Part shown: piece after piece, positions 25,958 through 29,455 of the stretch
How positions within the stretch are numbered: position 1 is the first letter of the stretch
Layout of the letters: every line of letters starts with the position of its first letter
Assembly: GCA_021775755.1 (NCBI GenBank)
Contig: JAJFHE010000015.1
Coordinates: forward strand, 49,839 to 113,838
DNA: 64,000 bases
Direction of reading: 5' to 3'
From: Hyphomicrobiales bacterium
Lineage (GTDB): Bacteria > Pseudomonadota > Alphaproteobacteria > Rhizobiales > JAJFHB01
Made by a program: the position numbers and the translations under genes
The notes under the pieces: model-generated
What the model was told of the DNA's origin: nothing
Databases searched by the model: none
What the model saw: the letters and a program-made list of their open reading frames with translations, nothing else

Positions 25958-27168
25958 AGAGAAGCCGCCAGTTCCGCAGCGACGGCGTTCAGCACCAGCC
26001 GCCCGCGCGGCGTGAGCTGGAGAACGGTGGTTGACACTTCTTCGTTAAGCAGCCCCATGCGCGCAAGCGCAATGACGGTATCGGGCGCGGGTGTGGGAAG
26101 GCCGCGCTCGCGCAATCTTGAAAGCGGCAGGCCTTCTGAAAGCCGCAATCCCATAACCAGGATTTCATGCGTCTGTTCACGGGCCGACAAGGGACTTTCC
26201 GTTGCGCTGCCCGTGCCTGCGCCATCCACTTCGCGGCGCCAGGCTTCCGGGTCGCGGTGGGCGTCGATGGCAAGGCGTTCCCCCGCCACCGTTATACGGC
26301 TGTGGGCGCCGGGACCAATACCGATATAGTCCCCATAGCGCCAGTAAATGAGGTTGTGGCGCGACTCCGCCCCGGGGCGGGCATGGTTGGAAATTTCATA
26401 CGCCGGAATGCCGGCTGCCTCACAGAGTTCCTGTGTGACTTCGTAGAATGCGACCGCGAGATCTTCTTCCGGGACAATGAGCTTGCCGGCGTCATGCAGG
26501 ACGGCGAAGGGTGTTCCCGGCTCTATCGTCAACTGATAAAGCGAAAGATGATCGCCGGCGCGCGCCAGCGCCTGCGTGAGCTCCGCGCGCCAGTCTTCGG
26601 CGCTCTGGTGTGGCCGCGCATAGATCAGATCGAATGACACGCGCTCAAAGTTTGTGTGCGCGACATCGAGCGCGGCCATGGCTTCGGCAACTGAATGCTG
26701 GCGGCCGAGCGCCTTGAGAGCGCGGTCATCCAGCGCCTGCACACCGACTGAAACGCGGTTTACCCCGGCGGTCCGGTACCCGGCAAAATTCCGCGCCTCG
26801 ACACTGGTCGGGTTTGCCTCCAGCGTGATTTCAGCATCGGCGCTCAGCGGCCAGAGATCCGCCGCGGCCTCAATGAGAGTGGAAACCGCGGCGGGGGTCA
26901 TGAGCGAGGGCGTGCCGCCGCCGAAGAAAATACTGTCGAGGATGCCGGCGCCGGTGCGGGCCGCGAAGCTTTGCATTTCCCGCACGAGGGCTCCGGTAAA
27001 GGACGTTTCGTCCACGCCGTTGTGACGGACATGGGAGTTGAAGTCGCAATAGGGGCATTTGGCGAGGCAGAACGGCCAGTGAATATAGAGGCCGAAACGC
27101 GTTTGGCCCGTTGACCAGATTGTATCGCGGCCTAAGCGCTCGGCGGCGGCGTGATCAATCGTGCCCAA
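25954..27168 (-). CDS. hemW: Radical SAM heme chaperone HemW
   Basis: [44 protein letters not shown]. Start uncertain (TTG 27168 overlapping rdgB end). Confidence 0.9.
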
Positions 27169-27775
27169 GACAGTCCTCAGTGAGCTTTGCAAACGCGTCG
27201 GCGCGGTGCGACATCTCATGCTTCTCCTCAGGCGCCATTTCACCGAATGTCAGCTGACGCCCGGTTGCCACGAATACCGGGTCGTAGCCGAAGCCGTGCT
27301 CGCCCCGGGGCGGCCATACCAAGTGTCCGCGCACCTCACCCTCGAAGATCTCATGATGGCCGTCCGGCCAGGCAATGCAAAGCGCGCAGACAAAGCGCGC
27401 GGCGCGTGCGTCTGCGCTGACGGCCCCTATCTCAGAGAGTTCGTGCTCAACGCGCTGCATGGCTTGCGAAAAGTCCTTTTGCGGACCGGCCCAGCGGGCG
27501 GAGTAAATCCCGGGCGCGCCGCCCAGCGCCTCGACCGCAAGCCCGGAATCATCGGCGAGCGCCACTTTTCCCGACGCATCCGCCGCGGCGCGGGCTTTCA
27601 GAAGCGCGTTTTCAGCGAATGTCGCGCCGGTTTCCTCGGGCTCATCCAGACCAAGCTCGCCAGCGGACACAACGCCAACGCCGCGGCCTCGCACCAGTTC
27701 GGCAATCTCACGCACCTTGCCCGGGTTGTGGCTTGCCACGACGAGAGTGGTTTCCTGCAATTGCCGATGTGTCAT
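27155..27775 (-). CDS. rdgB: dITP/XTP pyrophosphatase
   Basis: ASHNPGK, ADDSGL, PGIYSAR, GFGYDP, SHR; ATG 27775. Confidence 0.96.
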
Positions 27776-27776
27776 T

Positions 27777-28044
27777 CTAGAGCCCACTTGTTGAATTCGG
27801 AGCCACTTTGACCGGCTTGTCTTGCTGCGTGGTCAGGCGCGCTTCGCTATGCGATGTGGGACATCTCATAAGAAGCGCAACGCCGCCACGCGGCAAGACA
27901 AGCCGGCCGTTGGTGGACCAAATCCGTCCGCCGGCAGCGTTGCGCCGCTTGCCCGATGCCCCGCATCGCGCTGCGCGCCGCGCCTTGCCGGTCGAACTGA
28001 TTTGGTCCATCAAAGTGACTCCGGATTCATCAAATGGGCTCTAG
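27777..28044. mobile_element. MITE-like palindromic element 1 (268 bp, CTAG ends)
   Basis: 35-bp terminal inverted repeats 27777-27811 and 28010-28044 (31/35 matching); two internal hairpins; no transposase. Confidence 0.85.
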
Positions 28045-28446
28045 AGCCCAGATTCTCGGTTCGGCGAATTCAAGGCAGTTGCCCGCAGGGTCGCGGAAGT
28101 AGATCGAGCGGCCGCCCTGCGGCCATTCGAAGTCGGATTCGATCGCGACACCACGCGCGTCCAGACGGCCCCGCCAGGCCTCGATTTCATCGGCGCTGGC
28201 GGCAAAGCACACATGGCCCGGCCCATGCGCGCCGTGCGGCGGAACGGGCAGCGCACTTCCCGTCGCTGGTTTCGCCGTAGCCTCGGCGTTGAAGATGAGC
28301 AGAACCTGGCTGCCGCAGCGGAAGAACACGTGACGTCCGGCCTCTTCCGTCACCAGCTCCAGCCCCAGCACCTCGCGGTAAAAGGCGCTCGCCGCAGGCA
28401 GATCCGATGCATAAAGCACGGTTTCAAGAACCCGGTTGGGCGTCAT
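28030..28446 (-). CDS. VOC/glyoxalase family protein
   Basis: VLETVLY, FYREVLGL, GHVCF, RSIYFRDPAGNCLEF; last codons and stop lie inside element 1. Confidence 0.9.
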   Translation of the reverse strand: MTPNRVLETVLYASDLPAASAFYREVLGLELVTEEAGRHVFFRCGSQVLLIFNAEATAKPATGSALPVPPHGAHGPGHVCFAASADEIEAWRGRLDARGVAIESDFEWPQGGRSIYFRDPAGNCLEFAEPRIWALEPI

Positions 28447-28461
28447 TTGGCTTCCCGGTTG

Positions 28462-29175
28462 TCAGCCGACCGCAAATTTCTGGAGCGTTACAAGGCGCTC
28501 GATACCTTCGCGCGCCAGCGCCAGCATGGTTTCAAAGTCCCCGCCGCTGAAAGGATCGCCTTCCGCGGTCGCCTGAATTTCGACAATGCCACCCGACCCG
28601 GTCATGACGAAGTTCGCATCCGTGTCGGCTTCGGAGTCCTCCGCATAATCCAGATCGCATACCGGCTCGCCGTTATAGATGCCGCAGGAAATGGCGGCGA
28701 TGTGATCCTTTAGAACGTCCGTCTTGACCATGTCGCGCTCAGCCATCCACTTGATGCAGTCGTGCAGCGCGACCCAGGCGCCGGTGATCGAGGCGGTTCT
28801 TGTCCCGCCATCGGCCTGCAATACGTCGCAGTCGACCTGGATCTGGCGCTCGCCGAGCTTTTCAAGATCCACAACCGCGCGCAGGCTGCGGCCGATCAGC
28901 CGCTGAATTTCCTGGGTCCGGCCGCTCTGTTTGCCGGCTGTGGCTTCGCGGCGCATACGCTCGCCGGTAGAACGCGGCAGCATGCCGTATTCCGCCGTCA
29001 CCCAGCCGCGGCCCTGACCGCGCAGCCACGGCGGCACGCGGTCATCGAGACTTGCCGTACACAAGACATGCGTATCGCCGCATTTTATGAGGCAGGAGCC
29101 TTCGGCATGTTTTGCAAAACCGCGTTCCAACTCGATGGAGCGGATCGCGCCTGGTTCCCGTTTCGATGGTCGCAT
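28462..29175 (-). CDS. rph: Ribonuclease PH
   Basis: [46 protein letters not shown]. Confidence 0.98.
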
Positions 29176-29323: not shown

Positions 29324-29455
29324 CCAGACCGTTTCGGGTTCATATGAATTCGTTTGACCGGCGTTGCGGCGATTGCCCGATACACCGCACCGCGCCTTGC
29401 CGGATGAACCGGCTTGACCCATCAAACGTTTCCATATGAACCTGAAACGGTCTAG
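29324..29455. mobile_element. MITE-like palindromic element 2 (132 bp, internally deleted relative of element 1)
   Basis: 34-bp inverted repeats 29324-29357 and 29422-29455 (29/34 matching; ends CCAG/CTAG); core GCGTTGCG..TTGCCCGAT..CCGCGCCTTGCCGG..GAAC..CCATCAAA shared with element 1. Confidence 0.8.

Follow-up and report, generated by a model that had tools for sequence, protein, structure and literature searches.

A folded element between a glyoxalase-family gene and rdgB, probably a MITE of an apparently unnamed alphaproteobacterial superfamily moved in trans

[quoted passage not shown] Correia elements are TA-flanked MITEs, CIR repeats have been described with GANTC (CcrM) sites, and in the mobile repeat bcr1 compensating changes preserve the predicted fold. 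Here we analyse a palindromic element of 268 nt that lies between a glyoxalase-family gene and rdgB in a Hyphomicrobiales bacterium (assembly GCA_021775755.1). It occupies positions 27777-28044 of the window, by which we mean the whole stretch of 64,000 nucleotides that was analysed (contig JAJFHE010000015.1, positions 49,839 to 113,838).

RUP of Streptococcus pneumoniae is 107 bp long and the Correia or NEMIS elements of Neisseria measure about 104-157 bp (Delihas 2011), with about 110 bp given for CIR of Caulobacter and about 155 bp for bcr1 of the Bacillus cereus group (Delihas 2011, Table 1). Transcripts of Correia elements fold into long stems that can be cut by RNase III; these elements insert next to genes, and they carry promoters and IHF sites (2024 Genes review). 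Our literature searches found no description of the superfamily to which the present element belongs, and it is not listed in the available text of Delihas 2011 or of the 2024 Genes review; in that of the latter the terms IS630, Rhizobi- and Alphaproteobacteria do not occur. An original prediction, made from the letters of the window alone, could place the element in no named family, and Rfam likewise returns sub-threshold matches only. The superfamily of Alphaproteobacteria is apparently unnamed, and may well be present as an unnamed cluster in the supplements of a 2024 Nucleic Acids Research survey of prokaryotic MITEs (PMC11602168).

We conclude that the element is very probably a MITE of this superfamily, moved in trans, with a fold that has been kept in the lineages that transpose. 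The original prediction had proposed that the element is non-autonomous and that a transposase acting in trans recognises it, and the data agree with this: the element is multi-copy, intergenic, flanked by TA or CTAG, bounded by terminal inverted repeats and absent from the orthologous site in six relatives.

Structure of the element and its site of insertion

A repeat search recovered the 268-nt palindrome with its terminal inverted repeats and two hairpins exactly where they had been predicted. Its parts, in window coordinates, are:

27777-28044, 268 nt: the whole element, CTAG...CTAG, non-coding and between two genes.
27777-27780, no strand: left CTAG, in which TA (27778-27779) is read as the duplicated target dinucleotide.
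27778-27811, + strand: left terminal inverted repeat, TAGAGCCC...CTTTGA, which pairs with 28010-28043 and is common to all six full-length copies.
27812-27906, + strand: left hairpin (HL), a long stem (27812-27832 / 27886-27906) around module 1 (27833-27885).
Within module 1: AGGCGCG (27835-27841), which is conserved, an inner hairpin that varies, and CGCAACGC (27876-27883), which has an AAC bulge.
27910-28013, + strand: right hairpin (HR), a long stem (27910-27930 / 27993-28013) around module 2 (27935-27987).
Within module 2: GCGTTGCG (27937-27944), which has a GTT bulge, CGATGC-CCC-GCATCG (27954-27968) as inner hairpin, and CGCGCCTTGCC (27979-27989).
28010-28043, - strand: right terminal inverted repeat, which holds the stop codon (28030-28032, - strand) of the upstream glyoxalase-family gene.
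28041-28044, no strand: right CTAG, with TA at 28042-28043, after which contigs of other copies part.

In the repeat search the terminal inverted repeats extend over 36 nt (27776-27811 / 28010-28045) and are 89% complementary. The 21-nt stem of HL (27812-27832 / 27886-27906) matches at 95%, that is 20/21, the 21-nt stem of HR (27910-27930 / 27993-28013) at 86%, and an inverted pair of 53-nt modules (27835-27887 / 27933-27985) at 72%. A covariance model of the right hairpin (R1) reaches 119 bits at 27904-28014 and, on the opposite strand, finds the left hairpin as well (27807-27909, 53.6 bits, E 1.2e-10); HL is therefore an inverted, diverged copy of HR. With two inverted, diverged copies of a hairpin unit of about 105 nt set between terminal repeats, a single strand folds into a three-way junction, and the predicted single-stranded RNA fold of the 270-nt stretch has this form, consisting of the terminal-repeat stem and the two long hairpins. 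For the + strand its energy is -180.6 kcal/mol and for the - strand -186.9, as against means of -101.6 (sd 4.7) and -104.6 (sd 4.9) for dinucleotide shuffles (z = -16.8 on both strands), and none of 200 shuffles folds as well.

The reverse complement of 27833-27885 had been reported to align without gaps to 27935-27987, and it does so with 36 of 53 positions identical. The differences were said to fall largely in paired positions that swap together. This holds for ten of the 17, which form five complementary pairs (12/43, 13/42, 17/37, 18/36 and 25/29), and fails for the other seven (2, 19, 20, 38, 44, 52 and 53); the minimum-energy fold of module 2 has pairs 12/43 and 13/42 in a shifted register.

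The source genome is a draft of 5.47 Mb in 77 contigs. It contains five further full-length copies, 91-94% identical to the window copy, which makes six in all. Five shorter forms have lost either a hairpin or an internal piece while keeping both ends, and in a few minis little is left beyond the two terminal repeats. Among the 11 copies of the subfamily that carry both ends, TA is found at the left end in ten and at the right end in all 11, and the full CTAG in seven and ten respectively. One copy sits in TTAG...CTAT and therefore fits a duplication of TA, not a 4-bp duplication of CTAG.

Contigs from four metagenome runs of one biofilm study place the boundaries exactly at 27777-28044, since contigs of other copies part just before the first position and just after the last. 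All four are DNA runs, and no RNA run was listed as containing this stretch. Depth rises 10- to 100-fold over the element, and contig joints such as 27874->27975 match the deletion forms of the genome. No empty allele, and no contig joining across the whole element, was seen in these four runs.

The element is flanked by two genes on the - strand:

27158-27775, - strand: rdgB/Ham1, nucleoside-triphosphate pyrophosphatase (Pfam Ham1p_like, E 6.1e-63), with its start codon 2 nt from the element.
28033-28446, - strand, stop at 28030-28032: glyoxalase/VOC-family gene (Pfam Glyoxalase, E 9.1e-17).

In six relatives from five genera (G001, G002, G003, G004, G017 and G022) the two genes abut without the element. 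All six junctions were aligned, and wherever the junction was read the glyoxalase TGA overlaps the rdgB ATG (...GAATGAG...); the source genome has 268 nt between the genes. The element is an insertion that is absent from the orthologous site in these relatives. The glyoxalase-family frame now continues for 15 nt inside the right terminal repeat and ends ...RIWALE-PI-stop. An 11-nt direct repeat, TCTAGAGCCCA, flanks the element (28030-28050 and 27776-27786) and is explained by the native target (GAGCCCCC in the relatives), which already resembled the element terminus GAGCCCA. This end-like target may reflect chance or a preference for targets of that kind.

Relatives of the element and covariation of the fold

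The original prediction called for similarity and covariance-model searches for further copies, and both the source genome and other genomes yielded them. The right hairpin, the most sequence-conserved part of the superfamily, also matches more than 40 other loci of the source genome, and their flanks show complete elements of about 260-268 nt with different ends. An nhmmer profile built from 32 seeds gives 93 loci, 49 of them near full length, in five subfamilies:

Subfamily T (that of the window copy): 6 near-full-length copies, ends TAGAGCCC.
Subfamily A: 13 near-full-length copies, ends TAGACCGC.
Subfamily A2: 3 near-full-length copies, ends TAGAGCAT.
Subfamily B: 25 near-full-length copies, ends TACCAAGGG.
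Subfamily C: 1 near-full-length copy, ends TACCAGGG.

The five subfamilies align almost gap-free over 270 columns, and copies within a subfamily are 90-97% alike. Gene calls from a codon-usage model (4699 genes, 86.5% coding) allowed 41 full copies to be judged, with eight more at contig ends left out. None of the 41 overlaps a gene by more than 40 nt, and many full copies touch a stop codon. Copies are dispersed singly, and their orientation relative to neighbouring genes (9 co-directional, 18 opposite, 9 convergent and 5 divergent) shows no significant bias.

The same genome holds one nested insertion, a B-type copy inside an A-type copy (532 nt in total, C42:56111-56642), and a T copy on contig C50 that is directly adjoined by a solo 26-nt fragment of the left terminal repeat (C50:40724-40750). 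The window has a second member of the superfamily at 29335-29455, 1.3 kb away and upstream of a + strand gene; this is a truncated A-type copy whose left end is mutated to CCAGACC and which has lost most of the left hairpin.

An exact 21-nt pattern from hairpin 2, sought in one genome per species, finds at least 112 stretches. Among the 80 matches listed are records from Roseibium marinum DSM 17023, Hoeflea, Anderseniella, Afifella pfennigii and Aestuariivirgaceae, as well as from Kiloniellales, Pelagibius, Geminicoccaceae, Rhodospirillaceae and alphaproteobacterial metagenome-assembled genomes. The culturable Roseibium marinum DSM 17023 carries full-length copies (loci L072 and L131). The profile held almost end to end in 38 of these 80, and 34 of the 38 elements are 264-268 nt long, the exceptions being 254 (cut at the end of the locus), 283, 284 and 303 nt. 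That length is held despite near-complete turnover of the stem sequences suggests a geometric constraint.

Two classes of terminus occur among the 38, class I with (C)TA followed by GAGC... and class II with TACCAA...TTGGTA flanked by TNA. The middle base of the TNA is the same on both sides in 13 of 21 aligned B copies, and one IS630-family IS with TACCAA-type ends (L211) is flanked left and right by TGA; since the IS630 family duplicates TA, to duplicate 3 bp would be unusual. In a quick maximum-likelihood tree of the core only (202 columns, 41 elements) the terminus class needs eight changes, whereas shuffled labels average 13.2 and are as low once in 500. Branches with SH-aLRT support of at least 95 force at least two terminus changes, and the same core has therefore been joined to both kinds of end more than once.

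With its 112 positions and 29 pairs, the right-hairpin covariance model was also run against three genome samples, with matches counted at E <= 1e-5 and the source genome included. It matches 35 of 151 genomes of the order sample (29 of 101 genera; 34/150 without the source genome) and 18 of 151 in the class sample of one genome per family (17/150 without it). The phylum sample gives 7/151, where besides the source genome there are only weak matches of at most 47.4 bits, one to three per genome; those beyond the class are not counted as members of the superfamily. This patchy and usually multi-copy distribution is as expected for mobile DNA. Against 72,556 plasmids, a set expected to include rhizobial megaplasmids, blastn of the window copy gave no match, and blastn of an A-type copy gave a single 48-nt match in a Thalassospira marina replicon.

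RNAalifold on 34 copies from the source genome returns the same three-way junction, with 56 of 89 pairs changed on both sides. Terminal repeats covary in any such transposon, as both ends must fit one protein, and the 59 internal pairs were therefore counted alone. At these, 94.9% of the alignment cells pair, compared with 82.3 +/- 0.5% in shuffles and 35-45% in slid controls, where partners are displaced by 1-3 columns. Double changes are found at 33 of the 59, and none of 500 shuffles reaches that count or the covariation score. When the alignment is widened to 41 elements (8 from the source genome and 33 from others), compensation is seen at 80 of 95 pairs. Some unpaired features are fixed: the left hairpin has AGGCGCG...CGC-AAC-GC and the right hairpin its mirror, GC-GTT-GCG...CGCGCCT. 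The compensated pairing that had been noticed between two modules of one copy is much more strongly confirmed across subfamilies and genomes, and the data support the selection on the fold that the original prediction drew from it.

Within subfamilies the pattern is different. Decay was measured against the consensus of B (25 copies), A (13) and T (6). Where a paired site has changed on one side only, the pair is broken in 173 cases, becomes G-T in 99 and is again Watson-Crick in nine, while double changes keep the pair in 24 cases and break it in seven. The substitution rate at paired sites relative to unpaired sites is 0.81 in B, 0.43 in A and 0.84 in T. Resident copies decay nearly freely while the differences between subfamilies are compensated, and selection therefore seems to fall on the lineages that are still transposing. 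This would imply that the fold acts in cis, on mobilisation or on tolerance at insertion, rather than serving the host at each site.

A candidate mobiliser and alternative readings

We propose that a transposase provided in trans, most probably an IS630-family enzyme with a helix-turn-helix (HTH) and a DDE_3 domain, would move the element by cut-and-paste. This enzyme would bind the terminal inverted repeats of about 35 bp that start TAGAGC and insert the element at TA, usually within CTAG, with duplication of the TA. The window copy would have landed between the glyoxalase-family gene and rdgB and split the stop/start overlap (ATGA) that is kept in the relatives. The conserved fold would help an element to be mobilised or tolerated, after which inserted copies would decay freely. 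The reading of TA as a duplication, the IS630-family mover and the action of the hairpins in cis on transposition are predictions drawn from the patterns described above.

Mobilisation by an IS630-family enzyme is well motivated by comparison of ends. G002, a genome from the same family as the source genome, carries T-type copies at 83-91% identity and a 1054-nt IS with CTAG flanks, an HTH orfA and a DDE_3 orfB, whose ends read TAGAGC-N13-GGAGTCGATTG; those of the MITE read TAGAGC-N14-GGAGCCACTTTG. A similar IS forms a 1052-nt contig of Roseibium marinum; its two ends carry TAGAGC, and it has an HTH orfA and a DDE_3 orfB. A locus in a further genome (G111) combines a DDE_3 match with a TAGAGC left end and a similar second block. 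In the source genome three C-terminal DDE_3 fragments lie at the ends of contigs C22, C44 and C29; none has T-subfamily ends, and the ends of the C44 and C29 fragments resemble class II (TACCAA) termini. These termini are also matched by ISs with TACCAAGGGC... or TACCCATCGG...TTGACC ends. The hairpin model has no match inside any of 34 transposase loci, so the core is not a leftover of the ISs examined.

Several observations weigh against this account. The similarity between the ends of the MITE and those of the candidate IS is partial, being confined to the first 6 nt and a second block. The 77-contig draft of the source genome contains no pair of T-type terminal repeats 1-3 kb apart and no full-length IS with such ends, and a G002 query did not find the G002-type transposase in it; because the assembly is a draft, such repeats may be missing from it. 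For the complete genome G263 of the class sample, 15 hairpin-model matches are listed and there is no DDE_3 match at E <= 0.001. At the insertion site the relatives read TCGAG where the source genome would have had TCTAGAG, so that one TA becoming two is not visible; with relatives only about 70% identical in DNA, the exact pre-insertion sequence is not recoverable. The covariation counts treat related copies as independent, when in truth each genome contributes only a few subfamilies as independent lineages. Finally, the conservation of hairpin 2 in the wide alignment is inflated, because its loci were fished with the 21-nt hairpin-2 pattern.

Several of the hairpin matches in G263 score 105-121 bits; the copies there would be fossils, or else a different transposase would have moved them. 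An autonomous IS with the same ends was sought in G031, a complete Aestuariivirgaceae genome, and none was found, as every terminal-repeat match belongs to a MITE copy. The multi-copy IS630-family IS of that genome, about 1.2 kb long, was rejected as the mobiliser, since its own ends are unlike those of the MITE and it only inserts into CTAG at MITE ends. It does so repeatedly and exactly (loci L187, L191, L194, L195 and L196), and about seven of 12 transposase matches lie within a few hundred bases of a MITE copy. MITE ends act there as landing pads in a CTAG-poor genome.

Of the 28 GANTC (CcrM) sites in the 41-element alignment, 25 fall in the inner terminal repeats (columns 20-29 and 230-259). 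The window copy has one, at 28024-28028, and the ends of the candidate IS also carry GAGTC and GATTC. Control of transposition by methylation is conceivable.

A broader role for the hairpins can be envisaged, in which the unit of about 105 nt is a portable, selected, cis-acting fold that small transposons need for mobilisation. We regard this as rather unlikely. It is suggested by the core riding with two kinds of terminus (TA + GAGC... and TNA + TACCAA...) at a length fixed at 264-268 bp, and by a fold that covaries between lineages and decays in resident copies. The two palindromes might be extruded as cruciforms and so bring together the ends of a stiff element of about 265 bp for the transposase; another possibility is that recognition of the hairpins takes place in replication, while the DNA is single-stranded. 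We know of no structural transposition enhancer of such a kind described for IS630/Tc1-mariner elements, although no search for one was made.

The strength of the covariation could be taken to indicate a structured host RNA, in which the element or its hairpin unit would be either a cis signal in the glyoxalase-rdgB transcript (regulatory, processing or stabilising) or a small RNA, and the transposon-like ends would explain only its spread. The window copy lies within an operon and would be co-transcribed, its stems covary strongly and the unpaired blocks (AGGCGCG, the AAC/GTT bulges and CAAG) are fixed. In addition, cells with G-T outnumber those with A-C in the left hairpin (126 vs 33) and, to a lesser degree, in the right (50 vs 30), whilst the terminal-repeat stem is balanced (28 vs 25). 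This strand test is biased, however, as the structure was predicted on the same strand, and the excess vanishes when columns are counted (25 vs 20 on the left, 9 vs 13 on the right). The two strands fold equally well, no site resembles a promoter, terminator-like sites do not exceed the shuffled background, and the trend in orientation, itself not significant, runs counter to co-transcription of the aligned strand. The best Rfam match over 27000-29000 at a permissive E-value is mir-3910, with 27.8 bits against a threshold of 95, which is noise from a microRNA model. Individual copies, moreover, break their pairs freely. A host RNA is on these grounds very improbable, and the structured RNA that the original prediction had offered as one option is not borne out as a strand-specific molecule.

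The other option put forward there, a nuclease partner of the HUH type, fares no better. Elements handled as single-stranded DNA by an HUH (Y1) enzyme, such as REP/RAYT or IS200/IS605 derivatives, would account for the hairpins, since these enzymes recognise long, conserved, imperfect hairpins with fixed bulged bases, and the genome does have one Y1_Tnp gene. On its contig this sole gene (C50:2037-2657) is separated by 38 kb from the nearest copy (C50:40457), and copies are scattered one by one rather than grouped about a gene of that type. IS200/IS605 and REP elements also lack the 36-nt terminal inverted repeats and the TA flanks that the present element possesses, and we consider an HUH origin extremely improbable. 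It is also very unlikely that the internal hairpins are unselected and arose as a by-product, because a single unit was duplicated in inverted form and the copies share a recent ancestor. The left hairpin is indeed an inverted copy of the right, and the close likeness of copies within subfamilies means that many cells are not independent. Inverted duplication would explain why the units resemble one another, but not why the stems of each stay complementary: stems S1 and S2 of T, A and B differ almost completely in sequence and yet pair, and the slid controls, which keep the relatedness, reach only 35-45% pairing. The account that fits best is a MITE moved in trans whose fold is kept in transposing lineages.

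Significance and relation to described repeats

This genome has about 90 loci of the family, and there are many in other Alphaproteobacteria from the sea and from soil. These elements break assemblies and mimic structured RNAs; because of this mimicry, naming the family prevents false RNA-gene calls. The family also explains odd C-terminal extensions such as that of the glyoxalase-family gene. It constitutes a natural experiment in which one fold has been kept by compensation across lineages, with two terminus classes and one length. If the fold is needed for mobilisation, it would show how very short transposons bring their ends together and would provide a testable cis requirement for IS630-type transposases. 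If it is not, the element would be a tidy but ordinary selfish one.

Among the described repeats, bcr1 comes from an unrelated organism, is unrelated in sequence and differs in its ends and target. Correia elements resemble the present one in being TA-flanked, in folding strongly and in inserting next to genes. They have no sequence relation to it, and the promoters and IHF sites that they carry were not found in the element, whose fold is a three-way junction and not a single terminal-repeat stem. CIR, RIME of Rhizobium, Bru-RS of Brucella and RPE of Rickettsia are likewise alphaproteobacterial, intergenic and palindromic. The hairpin unit of about 105-112 nt has the size of CIR, and the GANTC sites in the terminal repeats of many members recall the description of that repeat, whereas the whole element is about 265 bp; the four families are compared with it here by their descriptions. 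A close parallel is with RUP and the IS630 MITEs, which share terminal inverted repeats, TA flanks, a preference for CTAG, multiple copies and intergenic location. Compared with RUP the element is about 2.5 times longer and has no sequence relation. Its interior is not a remnant of the ISs examined but a conserved double hairpin common to elements with two kinds of terminus.

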